Part shown: piece by piece, positions 12,868 to 20,671 of the stretch | Layout of the letters: each line of letters opens with the position of its first letter | Position numbering within the stretch: the stretch's first letter is position 1 | NCBI GenBank assembly: GCA_015061565.1 | Contig: SUWI01000001.1 | Coordinates: 21,505-85,504, forward strand | Direction: 5' to 3' | Length of the DNA stretch: 64,000 nt | Source: Lentisphaerota bacterium | GTDB taxonomy: Bacteria; Verrucomicrobiota; Lentisphaeria; Victivallales; UBA1829 | Notes under the pieces: generated by a model | Databases searched by the model: none | The model's input: the letters and a program-made list of their open reading frames with translations, nothing else | What the model was told of the DNA's origin: nothing | Program-made: the position numbers and the translations under genes

Positions 12868-13914
12868 TCAGTAACGGCGGCGGTTTTCCGTTCTGCGTCC
12901 GCCTCGACGATAAGTGGACCGGTTTCCGTTATTCTCCTTGCTTTCGCGGACGACCCGGAATCCGACGTTGGCATAACCCTGATCGGGATCACGTCCGACT
13001 CCGCGCGCCTCGGTACGGCATTCCGTGCGGCGGCTGTCCCACGCGCCGCCCTTGACCGCACGCTGACTGCCAACGGCACTTGAGGTCCATTCCCAGACAT
13101 TGCCCCACATATCCACCGCACCGCAGGCGGAGATCGTTTTTGCATAGGCATTGACGGGAGTCGTGCCGTCGTTTTCGCCGCAGTTGAAATCGGCATCCTT
13201 CGGCATGTGTCCGGCCGCCGCTTCCCATTCCGCTTCGGTGGGCAGACGGTAGGCCGCGCGTCCGCCGTCCCGGTCGGTAAGGTATTTGCAGTAGGCAATT
13301 GCATCTTCGTAACTGATATTCACCACCGGATGTTTCGCCAGATCCTCCGGCATTCTGCCGTTTTTCCAGGTGCGCGGCGCTTTCCGGCCGGTCGCGGCGA
13401 TGAATTTGGCATAATCCTCGTTGGTCACGGGCGCATAACCGATGGAAACATTCTGCCCGGCGCCGAGCACCTGCTGATAGCCGTCGGCGCTGCGGTTGCG
13501 CAATCCGGGACGGAAACGCTGATCGGTGAAGCGGCGCATGGAATTATCGACTCGCTGATCACGGTCGCGGAGCATCTCATCGACGATGTTCTGCATTTCC
13601 TCGACTTTGTACTGGTCGCGGGCGGTGCGTTTCAGCTCTTCGAGTTTGGCTTTCTTGCGGGCGACCACGGCATCGTAATTGCGTTCGACCTGTTTTTTGA
13701 GCGCGGCATAATTCGCCTCGCCGGGATCGCGGCGGTAAGCAGCGATCAGACGCTGTGTTTCCTCATTGAGCTGGGGACGCTCTTTTTCGATGGTAGTGCT
13801 GTAGCGATGAAGTTTGGCGTCCGGATTGGCGCGCTGCGGCGCGGCCTCAATGCTTCCTGTGATCCCGATGAGAGTCACACCTGCGATGACAGCGGCAAAA
13901 TCGATTCTTTTCAT
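12868..13914 (-). CDS. FGE-sulfatase (SUMF1/formylglycine-generating enzyme family) domain protein, secreted
   Basis: Signal peptide, coiled-coil N-terminus, then YRLPTEAEWEAAAG, NVWEWTSS, RGGAWDS, VGFRVVRE. Confidence 0.8.
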   Translation of the reverse strand: MKRIDFAAVIAGVTLIGITGSIEAAPQRANPDAKLHRYSTTIEKERPQLNEETQRLIAAYRRDPGEANYAALKKQVERNYDAVVARKKAKLEELKRTARDQYKVEEMQNIVDEMLRDRDQRVDNSMRRFTDQRFRPGLRNRSADGYQQVLGAGQNVSIGYAPVTNEDYAKFIAATGRKAPRTWKNGRMPEDLAKHPVVNISYEDAIAYCKYLTDRDGGRAAYRLPTEAEWEAAAGHMPKDADFNCGENDGTTPVNAYAKTISACGAVDMWGNVWEWTSSAVGSQRAVKGGAWDSRRTECRTEARGVGRDPDQGYANVGFRVVRESKENNGNRSTYRRGGRRTENRRRY

Positions 13915-13966
13915 GTTTCCTCCGTAATCTTGAAGTTCGAGTTGGAACTATTGCATTCCGTCCTCA

Positions 13967-13994
13967 AGAATGCGGAGAAATCGATTTATCTACA
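13967..13994 (-). promoter_or_regulatory. Promoter-like motif copy A: TGTAGA-N16-CATTCT
   Basis: Minus-strand reading is CCATGTAGATAAATCGATTTCTCCGCATTCTTGAG. It lies about 50 nt upstream of the ATG at 13914. Confidence 0.6.
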
Positions 13995-14020
13995 TGGTAT
14001 TTTTCAAAAAACTGAAAAAT

Positions 14021-16252
14021 TCATTCCTTTTTATCAAACTGGCCGCGGAATTCCTGGAGTCTGGGGCCATGATATTGCTCCAGTTCGCGGGCGATCACGG
14101 CGGACAAAGCGTCCGCTTCTTCCTGAGCTCCCCGCCGGCGGAACATTTGATGCCGCCGCAGCTGGATCTGGATCAGTTCTTCCTTAACGGGATCGGAGAT
14201 CTCCGGATTGTGGAAGAGGATCTCCAGAATGGCCAGCAGCCGTTCGCTTTCTTTGCGGACCTTTTTGTCACCGCCGCGGCGGCGCAGGACATCCATGCAG
14301 CGCTGGTGCAGTTTGACCACGGCGGAAACGATCTGCGGGTCGTTGGGCCAGCGTCCGAGCATTTTTTCGGAAAGACGGAGGATATCGTCCATTGCATTCC
14401 CGCTGTTCTGGAAACTGCGTATCAGACGGAATTTCCGGGTCATCAGATCGATCAGAGCCAAGCCGTATTCCGGCTGTTCCGGATGTTCTTCCGCGAGTTT
14501 GGCGAGCAGTTTTGCCGCATTGGGTTCCACGCCGGGGATCCGGAGCGAATGATACAACCGCGGATTGCCGCCCAGCAGCACGGCGTACAGGAAACGGTAT
14601 TCCGGATTGGCCGGCTGATCCTTGAGCAGGGTTTCCAGGATCCGGAATGCGCGGCTGCGTTCTTCACTGTCCGGAGCCTTGGAAATCGCCAGCAAGGCCC
14701 GGACGGTTTCGAACCGGTCTTCCGCTTTTTCCGACTTTTCATATTTTTCGATGACCTGCCGATACAACCGGTCTGCCTCCGCGGTTTTTCCGCGTTTGCC
14801 CAACACTTCCGCCAGCCGGTTCACGGGACAGGCATCGGAGCGGTATTTCATCATGCTGCGGTATGCTTCCTCGGCAACCTCGTAACTGCCGGTCCGCATG
14901 GCGCATTCGCCGATCACCGCGTATGCTTCGCAGATTTTGGACGGCGGAATGTGGCGTTGACCCGCGATCATCCGGTAATAGGGCAGCAAGGCATTCAGCA
15001 GTTTGGCATTCTTCCGGGAGGGCGGCTGTTCCGAAATACGCTTGAAAATCTGCGAGATCGCCGAATCGGCGGCCTGCGCATTCTGCTCCGCCAGCTTCAA
15101 GGCGGCCCGGGTCTGAATGAAACCGACGATCAGCGAAATCACCAATGCCGCCGCGCATCCGGCGGAAGCAAAGGTCAAGGCGGCTACGGCCGGTTTCCTG
15201 CGGCACCAGAGGATCAGCCGATGCAATAGAGTGTATTTGCACGCTTTGACCGGTTCGCAGTTCAGAAAACGCTGCAGATCGGAAACCACTTCATCCATGC
15301 TGGAATACCGGTCGGCGGGGTCGAAACTGATGCACTTGTTGATGATGGCGGCGAATTCGGGTTCGGTGCAGGAAAGCGGTTCGATCGCTCCGGAGCAGAT
15401 CCGCTTCACCAGATCTTCATGAGAGTTGCTTTGAAGCAGGGGTTTCCCTGTTGCCAACTCATACAGTGTCACCCCGAAAGCATACTGATCGGTGGCGAAA
15501 GTGTTGATCCCTTCCGCCAGCCGTTCCGGAGCCATATAACGCAGCGTGCCGCTTCGGCTGCCTCGGGTTTCGACGACCGGCTCGTTTCCGGACAGGATGA
15601 AGGCGATCCCGAAATCGCTGAGATGGATGTTCCCCTCCGTATCCAGCAGCATATTGGCCGGTTTGATGTCCCGGTGGAGGATCCCGCAGCGGTGCGCGTA
15701 AGCCAGCGCCTGCGCCGCCTGCAGACCGATCCGCGCCAGCTCGCGCAGATCATCGAACTGACAGCGGTCCAGTCCCTTGCCGTCGATCAGTTCCATCGCG
15801 TAATAACAGCGTTCCTCACTGCATCCGGCACTGTAGATCTTGACGATATTCGGGTGGTGCAGCATGGCGATGACTTTCGCCTCGTTTTCAAACAGTGCCC
15901 GCTGATCGTCATTGGTGAGCAGAGAGGAATTCAGCAGTTTGACCGCCACGCGGCGGTTGAGCGAAACCTGAACGGACTCGAACACGACACCCATGCCGCC
16001 GCTGCCGATTTTGCGGACCAGGCGGTAATCCGAATCCGGCAGATTGGTGCGTTCCGGCTGCGTCGGAGCACTCTTCCGCGTCTGATCCGGACTGATTTTT
16101 TCCATATCCAGCATCAAAGCCAGAAGACCGCGCAATTCATCGGCATGTTCCGGATGTCCCGCGAGAAAATCCTCGGTTTTCAGGTCTTCCCCGGCCTGCC
16201 TGCGTTCCAGAAATTCTGCCGCGATCTCTTCGACGGAATGCTCATTGCTCAT
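14021..16252 (-). CDS. Membrane Ser/Thr protein kinase with C-terminal TPR-like repeat domain
   Basis: Hanks motifs GSGGMGVVF, VAVK, HRDIKPANMLLD, DFG, APE. TM segment AVAALTFASAGCAAALVISLIVGF. Long helical-repeat C-terminus. Start MSNEHS forms an ATGA overlap with the sigma gene stop. Confidence 0.9.
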   Translation of the reverse strand: MSNEHSVEEIAAEFLERRQAGEDLKTEDFLAGHPEHADELRGLLALMLDMEKISPDQTRKSAPTQPERTNLPDSDYRLVRKIGSGGMGVVFESVQVSLNRRVAVKLLNSSLLTNDDQRALFENEAKVIAMLHHPNIVKIYSAGCSEERCYYAMELIDGKGLDRCQFDDLRELARIGLQAAQALAYAHRCGILHRDIKPANMLLDTEGNIHLSDFGIAFILSGNEPVVETRGSRSGTLRYMAPERLAEGINTFATDQYAFGVTLYELATGKPLLQSNSHEDLVKRICSGAIEPLSCTEPEFAAIINKCISFDPADRYSSMDEVVSDLQRFLNCEPVKACKYTLLHRLILWCRRKPAVAALTFASAGCAAALVISLIVGFIQTRAALKLAEQNAQAADSAISQIFKRISEQPPSRKNAKLLNALLPYYRMIAGQRHIPPSKICEAYAVIGECAMRTGSYEVAEEAYRSMMKYRSDACPVNRLAEVLGKRGKTAEADRLYRQVIEKYEKSEKAEDRFETVRALLAISKAPDSEERSRAFRILETLLKDQPANPEYRFLYAVLLGGNPRLYHSLRIPGVEPNAAKLLAKLAEEHPEQPEYGLALIDLMTRKFRLIRSFQNSGNAMDDILRLSEKMLGRWPNDPQIVSAVVKLHQRCMDVLRRRGGDKKVRKESERLLAILEILFHNPEISDPVKEELIQIQLRRHQMFRRRGAQEEADALSAVIARELEQYHGPRLQEFRGQFDKKE

Positions 16253-16854
16253 GACTGGAACTCCGTATATTCGGCAAGTTTCTGTCTCAGCCGCTGCAGG
16301 GCCCGGACATAGCGGATGCTGGCGGCTTTCGGTTCGATCTTCAACGCTTCCGCACATTCCGCATTGCCCAGTCCGTCGAAGTGACGCATTTCCAGGATCT
16401 GACGGTCGTTTTCGGACAGATCGGCCAAGGCCTGCTTCAGTAGTTCGTAACGGTCTTTTCTGGCGATCCGGGTAAGCGGACCGGTCACCGTATCCGCAAA
16501 AAGATTCCAGTTCACTTTGCCGGCGGTCGCATTTTCCGACTCGGTGACCTCCATTTCCTTGTAGGCATCCCGTTTCTGGCTCTGCAGATGCTTCCGTTCC
16601 AGTCCGATAATGGTCTGAAACAGCAGGGTGCGCAGCTTGAAATAAAGCGGAATTTCGGGATTGTTCTCGAAAAAGTCGATCTTCTGGCAGGCGGAAGACA
16701 AAGTGTCCTGGACTACATCTTCAGCGGTGACGCGTCGGCGCAGCACCGGAATGAGGTTTCTTTCCGCCAAGGCAAGAAGACGGCCGCGGTGCTCGAGAAA
16801 CTGTTCCGCCCAGAAAGTCTGCCGTCCGGCCTGATCTTCAGTTGTCATTTTCAT
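16249..16854 (-). CDS. ECF-type sigma-70 family RNA polymerase sigma factor
   Basis: Region 2 (VTAEDVVQDTL) and region 4 (LSENDRQILEMRHFDGLGNAECAEALKIEPKAASIRYVRALQRLR). The second ATG (16848) has better RBS spacing. No anti-sigma gene; the kinase follows directly. Confidence 0.85.
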   Translation of the reverse strand: MKMTTEDQAGRQTFWAEQFLEHRGRLLALAERNLIPVLRRRVTAEDVVQDTLSSACQKIDFFENNPEIPLYFKLRTLLFQTIIGLERKHLQSQKRDAYKEMEVTESENATAGKVNWNLFADTVTGPLTRIARKDRYELLKQALADLSENDRQILEMRHFDGLGNAECAEALKIEPKAASIRYVRALQRLRQKLAEYTEFQS

Positions 16855-16954
16855 TCCCTCCTGCTAATGTGATTAATATAAACGTTCTATCGGAAAAAGT
16901 CAACCGGAAAACAGTCGGTTGTCGTATGGCGTCAGCGGAATTGAGAAACGCGAA

Positions 16955-17130
16955 CAGTAGGACCATTGGGACGATTAGGACCGGTAGGATGATGCGGAAG
17001 ACATGGTCAAATGCAATACCGGATATTTTGCGTTCCGTTCACATCGCTGATTCATTGATCACCGTATCGTTACTTCGCCATCCACGTCCGTCCTACCTGT
17101 CTTACTGGTCTTACTTGTCCTACTCTCTGT
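16955..17130. repeat. Two inverted blocks of four 9-bp TAGGAC-type units
   Basis: 16956-16991 reads AGTAGGACC ATTGGGACG ATTAGGACC GGTAGGATG. 17089-17124 reads CGTCCTACC TGTCTTACT GGTCTTACT TGTCCTACT, the reverse-complement type. The blocks are about 95 bp apart, inside the sigma leader. Confidence 0.6.
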
Positions 17131-17153
17131 CATCCCGTTGGGCTCCACTCTTG

Positions 17154-17181
17154 AGAATGCGGAAATTCCGGTTTTTCTACA
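17154..17181 (-). promoter_or_regulatory. Promoter-like motif copy B: TGTAGA-N16-CATTCT, facing the sigma/kinase operon
   Basis: Minus-strand reading is GCTGTAGAAAAACCGGAATTTCCGCATTCTCAAG. It lies about 300 nt upstream of the sigma start. Confidence 0.6.
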
Positions 17182-17220
17182 GCATTTTCCCAATAATCCG
17201 GGAAAAAAGCTGTTTTCCCC

Positions 17221-17248
17221 TGTAGATTCGGCAGGATTTCCGCATTCT
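17221..17248 (+). promoter_or_regulatory. Promoter-like motif copy C: TGTAGA-N16-CATTCT
   Basis: CCCTGTAGATTCGGCAGGATTTCCGCATTCTTAG, about 75 nt upstream of the ATG at 17323. Back-to-back with copy B. Confidence 0.6.
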
Positions 17249-17322
17249 TAGCCGGTAAGAAAGCGCCAGAGCGTTTATCCGGCGTTGGAGACTCTATGTT
17301 CAACAGGAGGAAGAAAACCATC

Positions 17323-18489
17323 ATGAAGAAAACCGTTTTGCTGACAATGCTGAGCCTGTGTGCCGCCGTCTTTGCCGGAAGTGATCCCGAAAATGATTTT
17401 GTTCGGATCCCGGCCAATCCCGATTTTACTTTCGCAAGGAGTCTGCAAAGCCATGGGCTGCGCAGTGGATCCGGTGAAAAATCGCCGATCGCCAAAGCAT
17501 ACCGCATAGCGAAATATCCGGTCACCAATGCCGAATATGCGGACTTCTGCAAAGAAACCGGACATCGTCCGCCCCGTTACTGGCGGAACGGAACTTTCCC
17601 TGACGGTAAAGCCAAACACCCGGTGCTGGAGGTCTCGGTGGAAGATGCGAATGCATACTGCCGCTATCTCGAAAAGAAACATCCCGGGTGGCGCTTCCGT
17701 CTGCCTACCGAGGCCGAATGGGAGAATGCGGCGGCCGGACCGAAGCATTTCGAGTTCCCGTGGGGAAATTCCGCACAAGTCAGGATGACGGGCGGGCTGA
17801 TCGAAGCTCCGTTCAATTTCAATGCGGTCGTTGCGTCCCATTATCTGAAAAAATCGCCAGACCGGAAGGTCGTCTTTTTTCATCAGCGTTCTGCCCGGCA
17901 GGGAGAATCGGCAACGCTGCGGGATTTGATCTCGGTGAACGAACGCGGACAGGTGCGCGGCTGGATCAATCATGACGATTATACCGGTTTCGTTTATACC
18001 GATCTGTTCCGGAATTTATCCGCCGAGGGAGGATTCACCACACCAGTGGACCAGTATCCGGAAGGAAAAAGTCCATACGGCTGCTTTGACATGGCCGGAA
18101 ATTCATGGGACTGGACCTGTTCCGAAATCACCGCATCCAATGGAGCGGAGCGAGGCAAGACCGTGAACGCGATCCGCGGGGGCTCCTGGTATGCGAACAA
18201 GAACTCCTGCCGCACGGATTTCCGCGGGGAAGGCCGTCGGGCGCAGGGAAGATATAACACGGTCGGATTCCGGCTCGTTGCCGGGCGCGAGGGCGATTTC
18301 ACACTGCCGGATCCCGTTCCGGCATTGGGTCACAGAGAAGATGCCCCTCCTCCTCGTCCGGATCATTCCGTCTCACCGCCGGAACGCGGGGAACGTGCAA
18401 AGCGGCCGGATTCCGATTCTTTGTCGGATCGACCCCCGCGCAGGAAAAAGGCCGGAAAGACATCCGGCAAAAGGAGAAAAAAGAAATAG
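17323..18489 (+). CDS. FGE-sulfatase (SUMF1 family) domain protein, secreted, basic Pro/Arg-rich C-terminal tail
   Basis: Start at MKKTVLLTMLSLCAAVFAG (RBS AGGAGG 17305-17310). FRLPTEAEWENAAAG, NSWDWTCSE, RGGSWY, VGFRLVAG. Confidence 0.8.
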   Translation: MKKTVLLTMLSLCAAVFAGSDPENDFVRIPANPDFTFARSLQSHGLRSGSGEKSPIAKAYRIAKYPVTNAEYADFCKETGHRPPRYWRNGTFPDGKAKHPVLEVSVEDANAYCRYLEKKHPGWRFRLPTEAEWENAAAGPKHFEFPWGNSAQVRMTGGLIEAPFNFNAVVASHYLKKSPDRKVVFFHQRSARQGESATLRDLISVNERGQVRGWINHDDYTGFVYTDLFRNLSAEGGFTTPVDQYPEGKSPYGCFDMAGNSWDWTCSEITASNGAERGKTVNAIRGGSWYANKNSCRTDFRGEGRRAQGRYNTVGFRLVAGREGDFTLPDPVPALGHREDAPPPRPDHSVSPPERGERAKRPDSDSLSDRPPRRKKAGKTSGKRRKKK

Positions 18490-18585
18490 ACTCAATTCCC
18501 CATATTGGTTGATGGACGGATCAATTTCATATTTCACACCAATATTCCCTGGACATTGCTTTATTTGAGATTATATTACTTTGGC

Positions 18586-18612
18586 ATCGGTAATTCGTGC
18601 TCAATTACCGAT
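18586..18612 (+). terminator. Perfect 10-bp hairpin ATCGGTAATT/AATTACCGAT
   Basis: 7-nt loop. Sits between the FGE-domain gene and motif copy D. The downstream T-tract is weak (GTTGTGGATTTG). Confidence 0.4.
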
Positions 18613-18646
18613 GTTGTGGATTTGATGAAAAAAATTCAAATTTCCC

Positions 18647-18674
18647 TGTAGATTCGGCGGGATTTCCGCGTTCT
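18647..18674 (+). promoter_or_regulatory. Promoter-like motif copy D: TGTAGA-N16-CGTTCT
   Basis: CCCTGTAGATTCGGCGGGATTTCCGCGTTCTTAAG, 30 nt upstream of the ATG at 18704, with RBS AGGAGG in between. Confidence 0.6.
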
Positions 18675-18703
18675 TAAGAACAGGATCATCAGGAGGTATA
18701 AAA

Positions 18704-20671
18704 ATGCGTAAATCTCAACTTTCTTTTCTGACCGCGATCGTTTTCTTCGGCATTGCCGCCATGGCCGCGGATGAATGCAATGACTCCGGCGTATGCAAAC
18801 TGCCGGGGAGCAGTGATGACACTCAAAAAAACGGAGTCCTTTCGCCGGTCGGTAAAAATTCCATAAAAATGATCAGGCAGGCGCCGCGGCTGTCCACGCT
18901 GAACGGAAAAAACATTGCCGTCGTGGGCGGCAGTTTCATGGCCTCGGTGACGCATCCGGAAATCAGGAGGTTGATCCTGCAGCACTATCCGGATGCGAAG
19001 GTTTATGTCCTGAGCGAGATCGGTTCGGCGGGACCGTGGCCCGGTCCGGGCGTGGTCCGGCGGCAGAAAGACGAATTCGTGCAGAATCTGAAGCGGCTGA
19101 AGATCGATGCCGTCATTTCCGGCAACGGCGGATGCGGATTGTGCACACCGAAGGAAATGGGCTCCTGCATCGCCGCGGAATACAGCGGTCTGCCGTCCGT
19201 GATGATCGCCGCGCCCGGCTTCACCGACCAGGCGAAACGGGCGGCTTTGACCGCCGGCGTTCCCGTTCCGCGGGTGGCGGAATATCCCGGCGCGTTTTCG
19301 GCCCATACCCGCGAAGAACTGCTGGAGAACACCCGCAAGATCCTCTGGCCGCAGATCGTCGCCGCCCTCACCAAGCCGTTCACGCAGGAAGAACTGGAAC
19401 GATCCGAAAAAACCGCTCCGCCGGACGGGATCATCTATTCAGGCAATCTGGATGAGGTCAATCTCTATTTTTCCCAGAACGGCTGGACGGACGGTCTGCC
19501 GGTCATACCGCCGACTCCGGCGCGGGTGAATGAATTTCTGAAATACACCGACCTCGAACCGGATGCCGTGATCGCCGCCATTCCGCCGTCTTACCGGCAG
19601 GCGACCGCACGGCTCGTTGCCGTGAACGGAGTGATGGCGGGATGTCCGCCCGAATTCATGCCGGTCCTGATCGCCTTCACCAAAGCGATGACGGACGGCG
19701 ATTTCCGCCGGACCCTGGCGAGCACCCATGCATGGACCCCCTACTGCTGGATCAACGGTCCCATTGCCCGGCAGCTGGAGCTGGACAGCGCACAGGGAGA
19801 GATCTCCAATATGCGCAATGCGAAGATCGGCCGTTTCATCAATCTGGCCATGCTGAACCTCGGCGGCTATCACATCAAGCAAAACCGGATGGGAACGTTC
19901 GGATATCTGATGCCGTGGTGTCTGGTGGAAGATGACGCCGCCGCAATCAAACTGAACTGGCGGCCGTATCACATGCAGCAGGGTTACAAACTGAACGACA
20001 ATGTTCTGACTGCGGCATCCTCACTGTCATGGGGCAACAATCTGGCGCCCGCGACCGCCGATCCGCAGAAGATCATGGAAATGATGGCATGGGACGCGGT
20101 GGAAAAACAGCAGTTCGCTGTCGGCAGCGGCACTCCGTTCGTTTATCGGACCATGCTGATAACGCCTTATGTTGCGCGCGATCTTGCCCGGAAATTCCGG
20201 AGCAAGGAAGATTTGGAGAAAGCGCTGATCGGTACTGCACGCCGTCCGGTCGAGGAACGGGCTTATGCCAATTACTGGGGAAATCCCGGCAGTGCGTTCA
20301 ATCCGGAAACTTATTCCGTGCGGCGGCACACATACCGGATCAACCGGCAGGAAGGCGGGGAAAATACCGCCGTCCCGCCGTGGCTGGCCTGGACCGGAAA
20401 AGACCGTGTGGAAACCGTCCCGGTCATGGCGGCGGGAAAAACCGCGATGATCATTACCGGCGACGCCAGCCGCAACAAGACCATGTGCGTTCCGGGCGGC
20501 GGATTTGCCTCGGTGAAAATCGAACTCCCGAAGAACTGGGACAAACTCATGGAGACGGCCGGATATCAGCCCCTGAGCAGTTTTTGTCTGCAGTCGGATC
20601 TGACTCCCGCCAGCCGGCCGCAGCAGTTCAAAAATTACCGTCAGCGCAGAGGCATGAACCGCGCGCGGTGA
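18704..20671 (+). CDS. Secreted protein of unknown function (655 aa) with CxxC-containing N-terminal module
   Basis: Sec signal ...GIAAMA/AD. KNIAVVGGSF strand-loop and GNGGCGLCTP motif. I could not place the large C-terminal domain. Confidence 0.6.
   Translation: MRKSQLSFLTAIVFFGIAAMAADECNDSGVCKLPGSSDDTQKNGVLSPVGKNSIKMIRQAPRLSTLNGKNIAVVGGSFMASVTHPEIRRLILQHYPDAKVYVLSEIGSAGPWPGPGVVRRQKDEFVQNLKRLKIDAVISGNGGCGLCTPKEMGSCIAAEYSGLPSVMIAAPGFTDQAKRAALTAGVPVPRVAEYPGAFSAHTREELLENTRKILWPQIVAALTKPFTQEELERSEKTAPPDGIIYSGNLDEVNLYFSQNGWTDGLPVIPPTPARVNEFLKYTDLEPDAVIAAIPPSYRQATARLVAVNGVMAGCPPEFMPVLIAFTKAMTDGDFRRTLASTHAWTPYCWINGPIARQLELDSAQGEISNMRNAKIGRFINLAMLNLGGYHIKQNRMGTFGYLMPWCLVEDDAAAIKLNWRPYHMQQGYKLNDNVLTAASSLSWGNNLAPATADPQKIMEMMAWDAVEKQQFAVGSGTPFVYRTMLITPYVARDLARKFRSKEDLEKALIGTARRPVEERAYANYWGNPGSAFNPETYSVRRHTYRINRQEGGENTAVPPWLAWTGKDRVETVPVMAAGKTAMIITGDASRNKTMCVPGGGFASVKIELPKNWDKLMETAGYQPLSSFCLQSDLTPASRPQQFKNYRQRRGMNRAR

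Follow-up and report, generated by a model that had tools for sequence, protein, structure and literature searches.

Four copies of a promoter-like motif around a kinase-linked ECF sigma factor operon in a Lentisphaeria bacterium

A 64,000-nucleotide (nt) stretch of contig SUWI01000001.1 from a Lentisphaerota bacterium (GenBank assembly GCA_015061565.1), hereafter the window, carries four copies of the bipartite motif TGTAGA-N16-CRTTCT, grouped around an operon that encodes a sigma factor of the extracytoplasmic function (ECF) type and a Hanks-type Ser/Thr kinase (Table 1). This arrangement raises the question of what reads the four copies and how their reader is itself switched. On the sequence evidence, the most probable answer, with a probability of roughly 0.8, is that the four sites are target promoters of the adjacent ECF sigma factor and that this sigma factor is controlled by the coupled kinase, in a bacterium of the gut or rumen. 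The motif, its geometry, its conservation across species and the genes that surround it can all be observed directly.

Exactly four matches to TGTAGA-N16-CRTTCT (sites A to D) occur in the window against 0.01 expected from dinucleotide-preserving shuffles, and a count of four was reached in none of 100 such shuffles. Allowing two mismatches adds four sites where 4.7 are expected, so that further, weaker copies in the window are at chance level. With a 30-nt position weight matrix (PWM) built from 42 related sites, only sites A to D score at least 14 bits. Each site is intergenic and aimed at a start codon that has a Shine-Dalgarno sequence before it: A faces the start at 13914 of a protein with a formylglycine-generating enzyme (FGE) domain (FGE1), B the sigma factor start at 16854, C the start of a second such protein (FGE2) at 17323, and D the start at 18704 of a secreted protein of 655 amino acids (aa). 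The initial annotation had described four sites with an exact 16-nt spacer, each directed toward a gene start, and both statements hold for every site, as does the promoter-like geometry it noted for site D, where the motif ends 29 nt before the ATG with an AGGAGG in the gap.

Table 1. Features of the sigma factor locus in window coordinates.
Feature	Position	Strand	Details
FGE1	12868..13914	-	348 aa, secreted; Pfam PF03781 6.7e-30; signal peptide, coiled-coil region, FGE-sulfatase domain
Site A	13967..13994	-	Motif TGTAGATAAATCGATTTCTCCGCATTCT; 52 nt 5' of FGE1 start; PWM 29.8 bits
Hanks-type Ser/Thr kinase	14021..16252	-	743 aa; Pfam Pkinase 1.4e-47, tetratricopeptide repeat (TPR) matches
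ECF sigma factor	16249..16854	-	201 aa; TIGR02937, Pfam; T-A-E-D in sigma-2.2
Leader between site B and sigma start	16855..17153	-	299 nt; no credible open reading frame (ORF)
Terminator-like hairpin (16917-16901) overlapping sigma-70-like TTGACT-N17-TATATT (16903-16875)	16875..16917	-	~20 nt before sigma ATG
Site B	17154..17181	-	Motif TGTAGAAAAACCGGAATTTCCGCATTCT; aimed at sigma-kinase operon, 299 nt from motif end to ATG; PWM 32.5 bits
Site C	17221..17248	+	Motif TGTAGATTCGGCAGGATTTCCGCATTCT; 74 nt 5' of FGE2 start; PWM 40.5 bits
FGE2	17323..18489	+	388 aa, secreted; Pfam PF03781 7.2e-40; basic low-complexity tail
Perfect 11-bp hairpin, 7-nt loop	18585..18613	+	CATCGGTAATT / AATTACCGATG; between FGE2 and site D
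Site D	18647..18674	+	Motif TGTAGATTCGGCGGGATTTCCGCGTTCT; 29 nt 5' of 655-aa protein start; PWM 40.7 bits
655-aa secreted protein	18704..20671	+	Pfam PF24696 2.3e-13; UGSC-family domain 45-223

Sites B and C lie back to back, with their TGTAGA boxes 39 nt apart. Site A starts 27 nt past the kinase stop codon, so FGE1 could also be reached by read-through from the kinase gene. The hairpin at 18585..18613 has a weak T-run and was therefore not called by the terminator scan; it is likely the FGE2 terminator, in which case site D would be an independent promoter. No tRNA or Rfam elements were found in the whole window.

Conservation of the motif was followed in a comparison set of 50 Lentisphaeria/Victivallales and Kiritimatiellia loci, one genome per species, totalling 510 kb (related loci are designated here by L numbers). 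With spacers of 15 to 17 nt allowed, this set contains 43 sites, against a mean of 0.43 and a maximum of two in 30 first-order Markov simulations. Nearly all of them have a 16-nt spacer and four a 17-nt one, and alignment of 42 unique sites with a 16-nt spacer yields the consensus TGTAGAWT-N13-GCRTTCTTA. Both hexamers are invariant across species while the spacer sequence drifts, most of its positions being weakly constrained; kept besides the two boxes are W-T after TGTAGA, G before CRTTCT and TTA after CRTTCT. Because the spacer varies between species, the conserved GATTTC(T)CCG block that had been proposed to abut the downstream hexamer is mostly lineage-specific, and what persists of it is the G, and mostly CC/TC, just before CRTTCT. 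A weaker purine-rich patch resembling GGTGGAGC lies about 5-12 nt 3' of the motif, where a transcription start would be expected.

The placement of the motif is conserved as well. Of about 40 Lentisphaeria loci with this sigma family, about 30 also have the motif, which clusters within a few kb of the sigma gene; a same-strand copy 5' of sigma is kept in about 30 related loci, and back-to-back pairs like B and C recur in L003, L004, L013, L018, L102 and L172. Distances from motif to start codon in relatives are mostly 30-70 nt, with some of about 150-290 nt. FGE1 orthologues in at least 10 loci/species have the motif 48-65 nt upstream, and the FGE2 orthologues in L001 and L013 have it 33-45 nt upstream. 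This retention upstream of the orthologous operon and of orthologous targets in many species, with hexamers and spacer length fixed and spacer sequence free, supports the earlier promoter interpretation.

A metagenome-wide scan with TGTAGAWT-N13-GCRTTCTTA returned 124 sites on 120 contigs. Downstream of 49 of these, on the same strand and within 450 nt, starts a gene for FGE1, FGE2, the 655-aa protein, one of two small repeat-protein types (GLKNG or GQR-rich), a methyltransferase-like protein or an esterase. The direct targets that occur most often include homologues of the 655-aa protein, which stand immediately 3' of the motif in at least 10 contigs. The other sites are mostly on low-GC contigs and are consistent with chance matches in a very large collection. 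Placement directed at genes, together with recurring target families, points to a sigma promoter rather than to a dispersed repeat or the operator of a symmetric transcription factor.

The candidate reader belongs to the ECF sigma factors, as had been annotated, with 61.5 bits to TIGR02937 (cutoff 42.9), 38.9 to Sigma70_r4_2 (25.7) and 22.7 to Sigma70_ECF (21.1); its Pfam Sigma70_r2 score of 19.7 falls under the cutoff of 24. The best subfamily model is the planctomycete TIGR02984, which aligns end to end; the score of 132.9 bits is short of the cutoff of 183.75. The source records of the sigma homologues name Lentisphaeria or Victivallis. No second sigma factor, kinase or further FGE paralogue was found elsewhere in the window.

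The kinase carries the motifs VAVK, HRD, DFG and APE in its translation and consists of a cytoplasmic kinase domain (residues 76-320), one transmembrane helix at about 354-388 (from hydropathy) and an extracytoplasmic TPR region, the TPR matches in its C-terminal half being weak in Pfam. Its start overlaps the sigma stop by ATGA (TCATGA, 16249-16254), and the sigma gene is followed immediately by the kinase gene in all 50 of 50 related loci. The membrane Ser/Thr kinase that the initial annotation saw as ATGA-coupled to sigma is thus confirmed at 16249-16254 with a single transmembrane helix, and so is the lack of an adjacent anti-sigma factor, since no anti-sigma Pfam domain was found among the five proteins of the cluster. 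Kinase-associated ECF groups (ECF43, 59-62, 217, 267, 283) typically lack one (PMC7826278).

The mechanism that we infer, from promoter activity and transcription start to phosphorylation and signal, would run as follows. TGTAGA(WT) would serve as the -35 element and (G)CRTTCT(TA), with its ECF-typical CGT/CAT core, as the -10 element, separated by the fixed 16-nt spacer; transcription would probably start at a purine about 7-10 nt 3' of the motif. Four units would be driven in this way: the sigma-kinase operon from site B, FGE1 from A, FGE2 from C and the UGSC-domain 655-aa protein from D. In place of an anti-sigma factor, the translationally coupled, single-pass Hanks kinase would control sigma, its extracytoplasmic TPR domain sensing an envelope or extracellular cue and its kinase domain phosphorylating and so activating the sigma factor. 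The likeliest phosphosite would be the Ser/Thr (position 43) standing where the sigma-2.2 motif DAED, which contacts RNA polymerase, has its first Asp, and a second possible site would be a conserved T-G/S-P (T124) in the linker between sigma2 and sigma4. The products are all secreted, judging by their signal peptides, so the output would act in the periplasm or envelope.

The candidate phosphosite is conserved family-wide. Seventeen aligned sigma homologues have R-V-[TS]-[AP]-E-D-V-V-Q as their sigma-2.2 segment, and Ser or Thr stands in place of the first Asp of DAED ([ST]-[PA]-E-D) in 117 of the 118 homologues, out of 120 retrieved, in which this segment could be located. The Kiritimatiellia orthologues show this too, as does a paralogous sigma factor. 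Such near-invariance of a hydroxyl residue fits activation by the ATGA-coupled Hanks kinase. The linker of the window sigma has T-G-P, and T-[GST]-P is kept in nearly all homologues, differing in the most divergent Kiritimatiellia orthologues.

The best characterised point of comparison is ECF43, represented by EcfP/PknT of Vibrio parahaemolyticus and EcfK/PknS of Xanthomonas citri. In this group DxxD is replaced by uncharged residues, with the consensus QTTA and the phosphorylated Thr at position 3 (PMC13147305); phosphorylation restores the negative charge needed for RNA polymerase binding, and in EcfK a further site, in the linker, is also functional (PMC13147305; PMC8999054). Like ECF43, the window system sets a sigma factor without an anti-sigma beside a single-pass Hanks kinase, has a hydroxyl residue in the sigma-2.2 motif and a candidate second phosphosite in the linker (as EcfK T106), and would govern a small, mostly local regulon. 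Unlike the uncharged QTTA/STTA of ECF43, with phospho-Thr third, the motif here is [ST]-[AP]-E-D, with the hydroxyl residue first and both acidic residues kept. The hosts belong to the Planctomycetes-Verrucomicrobia-Chlamydiae (PVC) superphylum rather than the Proteobacteria, the targets are secreted FGE-like and UGSC proteins rather than type VI secretion or polymyxin resistance, and the promoter differs. Membership of ECF43 was considered and ruled out by T-A-E-D, in which acidic positions 3 and 4 are kept.

A closer likeness is to the planctomycetal groups ECF59-62 and ECF217 and to TIGR02984 (Sig-70_plancto1), which share the PVC superphylum, a conserved neighbouring kinase and the lack of an anti-sigma factor (PMC7826278). 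Ser in DAED has been proposed as the phosphosite in planctomycetal ECF59/60 (PMC8103513); in the family of the window sigma, Ser/Thr is at the first position. The window sigma differs from TIGR02984 members in its score, below the cutoff, and in its host, which is a member of the Lentisphaeria and not a planctomycete. Judged by its motifs, the sigma factor is not ECF43-like and resembles the planctomycetal groups with Ser in DAED. No experimentally characterised member or promoter of ECF59-62/217 was found in the literature, and a search for work on this motif, or on ECF/kinase systems in Lentisphaerae or Victivallis, found nothing relevant.

Classical autoregulated ECF promoters include those of sigma-W (TGAAAC-N16-CGTA) and sigma-E (GGAACTT-N16-TCTGA). 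The present motif is like them in its bipartite -35/-10 structure, its spacer of about 16 nt, its CGT-type -10, the copy at its own operon and the clustering of its targets. It is unlike them in having a -35 of TGTAGA and an extended -10, GCRTTCTTA, and in the position of the own-operon copy, which is distal in the window and in relatives usually precedes one to three genes that stand before sigma.

Several observations weigh against this assignment of promoter, sigma and kinase. The hallmark of ECF promoters is a -35 with AAC and a -10 with CGT (PMC8103513); TGTAGA has no AAC, while the -10 CRTT (CGTT/CATT) fits the CGT hallmark. The Kiritimatiellia orthologues and a few Lentisphaeria loci are without any motif, and a variant motif was looked for in the Kiritimatiellia loci and none was seen. 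In L001, which is the nearest locus of the genome collection, a small repeat-protein gene stands before sigma, and a same-strand motif lies upstream of neither. Because the sigma factor keeps the Glu and Asp of DAED, it may not be strictly dependent on phosphorylation. In some other species a paralogous sigma/kinase pair occurs with the same motif, so that adjacency does not uniquely identify the motif's reader. Finally, 299 nt separate site B from the sigma start, and this interval holds a terminator-like hairpin and a sigma-70-like promoter, so that autoregulation in this genome may be weak or partial. For the autoregulation that had been proposed, a co-oriented copy lies 5' of the operon and a same-strand copy is kept in about 30 related loci; the distance and the intervening elements qualify the proposal.

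Among the alternatives, the one that survives best accepts the motif as the promoter of the adjacent sigma factor and holds that the kinase does not phosphorylate it, the sigma factor being constitutive or the kinase serving another partner. The retained Glu and Asp, so unlike the uncharged motif of ECF43 (PMC13147305), would suit such a sigma factor, as would the sigma-70-like promoter directly 5' of its gene, and a review allows that non-ECF43 kinase-linked groups may work differently (PMC8999054). This alternative is nevertheless unlikely, given the ATGA coupling in the window and the adjacency of the two genes in every related locus, the near-invariant Ser/Thr at the first DAED position in more than 118 homologues and paralogues, and the absence of an anti-sigma factor.

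Less probable again is that a different regulator, either a paralogous ECF sigma factor encoded elsewhere or a DNA-binding transcription factor, reads the motif, with the adjacent sigma-kinase operon as just one of its targets. In its favour is the paralogous pair, whose sigma is 44-50% and whose kinase is about 37% identical to those of the window, and which lies beside motif-bearing homologues of the 655-aa protein in L055, L104, L124, L145 and L153. The motif there is TGTAGA-N16-CGTTCT, which implies that two related systems share one promoter type in some Lentisphaeria; the orthologous sigma operons without a motif point the same way. Against a foreign reader stand the company that the motif keeps with this sigma family, within a few kb in most of the Lentisphaeria loci, and its form, since a motif that is asymmetric and bipartite, with its spacer constant at 16 nt and its orientation and distance to start codons strict, suits a sigma factor and not a dimeric transcription factor. 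The neighbourhood has no further conserved sigma or transcription factor, and the window holds no second sigma. A non-regulatory nature of the sites, as a short dispersed repeat or through recent local duplication, is highly improbable: sites C and D are near-identical over about 36 nt, as recent duplication of one promoter would allow, but A and B share little with them beyond the hexamers, conservation across species is confined to the two boxes and the distance between them, and the sites always lie 5' of genes and oriented toward them, with no others in the window.

In the leader that separates site B from the sigma gene, the sigma-70-like TTGACT-N17-TATATT and its overlapping hairpin recur in the two closest of the relatives retrieved, L172 (with a sigma 91% identical) and L173 (77%), and in 7 of 73 loci overall, so that they are not family-wide. 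From these elements, the sigma factor probably has its own basal promoter in this lineage, and feedback from site B may be attenuated. The leader, with a 34-nt imperfect inverted repeat (16956-16989 / 17091-17124) inside it, folds no better than its shuffles (z = 0.18). The repeat has 76% complementarity and a 9-nt internal periodicity of GTAGGAC-like units. A structured RNA or riboswitch was considered and rejected on this folding score, on the lack of any Rfam match in the window and on the incomplete complementarity of the repeat. A hidden gene for a small secreted (GLKNG)n protein was also rejected, no suitable ORF and no tblastn match being found. In relatives a small secreted repeat-protein gene occupies the position of the leader; the window leader has no homology to such proteins and looks like a remnant left after loss of the gene.

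These small repeat proteins fall into two types. In many relatives the first gene after the motif, immediately before sigma, encodes a secreted, lysine-rich (GLKNG)n protein of 75-170 aa with no meaningful Pfam match (L001:5086-5370, L006:5603-5875, L018:4461-4748, L034, L039, L040 and L049; in metagenomes L068, L075, L105, L118, L126 and L131). In another sublineage a secreted Gly/Gln/Arg/Pro-rich repeat protein of 190-360 aa stands between motif and sigma (L021-L028, L033 and L047, for example L024:4941-5804, and L119, L139, L167 and L171). A second, degenerate copy of the motif (CGTTGAATCGGCGGGAAAGACGCGTTCTTG) lies about 83 nt 3' of the canonical copy in this sublineage.

The two FGE-domain proteins share the FGE-sulfatase fold domain of FGE/SUMF1 and of the non-catalytic pFGE/SUMF2, and their closest solved structures are ToxD, SUMF2/pFGE and CalU17, not active FGEs. 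Of the catalytic cysteine pair of FGE/SUMF1 (human C336 and C341), both have lost the first. FGE2 carries Ala where human FGE has Cys336 and retains a counterpart of Cys341 (GGSWY-A-NKNS-C, against GGSYM-(C336S)-HRSY-C in 2aft), and in FGE1 the first cysteine is Ser (GGAWD-S-RRTE-C, read by eye from the translation). With this residue replaced in both, they are unlikely to be canonical formylglycine-generating enzymes, and by their sequences they are probably modules for binding or some other function rather than sulfatase maturases. The hydrophobic N-termini of FGE1 and of the 655-aa protein (by hydropathy) are consistent with signal peptides; the N-terminus of FGE2, MKKTVLLTMLSLCAAVFAGS, looks like a signal peptide though it falls under the hydropathy threshold. 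FGE2 ends in a Pro- and Arg/Lys-rich low-complexity tail (residues ~320-388; 18280-18489, + strand; …RPPRRKKAGKTSGKRRKKK), recalling the basic tails that small repeat proteins of the same regulon have in relatives.

The 655-aa protein scores 51.1 bits to PF24696 (cutoff 25) and 36.5 to NCBIfam NF041046, below the cutoff of 125. Its UGSC domain contains the motif CGLC (C144, C147), invariant in 30 homologues, where the family motif is U/C-G-S-C. It belongs to a very abundant, strongly conserved family with 2864 homologues, the best 120 of which are all at least 63% identical and unnamed, and it shares 97% identity with a protein from a Lentisphaeria metagenome-assembled genome. A search against PDB sequences gave no match, and the C-terminal ~420 aa matched no Pfam family and no solved structure. 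A confident AlphaFold2 model (predicted local distance difference test, pLDDT, 78; predicted template modelling score, pTM, 0.76), compared with the PDB by Foldseek, matched nothing at E<1e-3, just weak flavodoxin-like matches to the N-terminal domain being returned.

The initial annotation had held that the complete local regulon could be read from this locus, a claim that exceeds what 64 kb can show, and relatives have further targets that the window does not: the GLKNG repeat proteins, a methyltransferase-like protein, an esterase and a metallo-beta-lactamase (MBL) fold hydrolase. The methyltransferase-like protein, of about 450 aa with the segment ...PASFRDP(S/T)GFV... and a weak match to S-adenosylmethionine-dependent methyltransferases, is a recurrent, divergently transcribed target of the motif that starts about 170-190 nt downstream (sites at L001:3361-3388(-), L004:3999-4027(-), L013:5748-5776(-), L018:3238-3265(-), L040:1944-1971(-) and L129:1584-1613(+)). 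No homologue of it was found in the window. The order in relatives is often motif, FGE1, MBL-fold hydrolase, sigma and kinase, and this is the arrangement in the cultured type strain Victivallis vadensis DSM 14823 (L015; NZ_QEKH01000034.1, 3889-8795).

The locus is a kinase-linked ECF system of a type already predicted for PVC bacteria and introduces no new principle. What is new is its particular promoter, its set of targets and, throughout the family in Lentisphaeria and Kiritimatiellia, a Ser/Thr in place of the first Asp of DAED. A wider proposition, tentative and somewhat short of even odds, is that a PVC-wide ECF family, spanning Lentisphaeria and Kiritimatiellia and related to the planctomycetal groups, is switched by its kinase through the Ser/Thr that replaces the first Asp of DAED, perhaps also through the linker T-G/S-P, and controls an undescribed module of wholly secreted proteins.

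A review has called for characterisation of the non-ECF43 kinase-linked ECF sigma factors (PMC8999054), among which there is no known characterised member. One region offers a compact test case for sigma phosphorylation outside ECF43, comprising the sigma factor, its sensor kinase, the promoter TGTAGAWT-N13-GCRTTCTTA, a short target list and a candidate phosphosite. Since the same system is present in the cultured V. vadensis, the predictions are testable directly or in a heterologous reporter. The locus also gives a first regulatory handle on three abundant, unnamed families of secreted proteins in gut and rumen Lentisphaeria. If the wider proposition is true, the switch would differ from that of the characterised ECF43 systems in position and charge context, and the module that it governs would consist of Cys-deficient FGE-like proteins, a UGSC-domain protein with a conserved CxxC and an unmatched C-terminal fold, and lysine-rich (GLKNG)n peptides. 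Such a module could be an envelope-sensing or envelope-remodelling pathway specific to anaerobic PVC bacteria of the gut and rumen.

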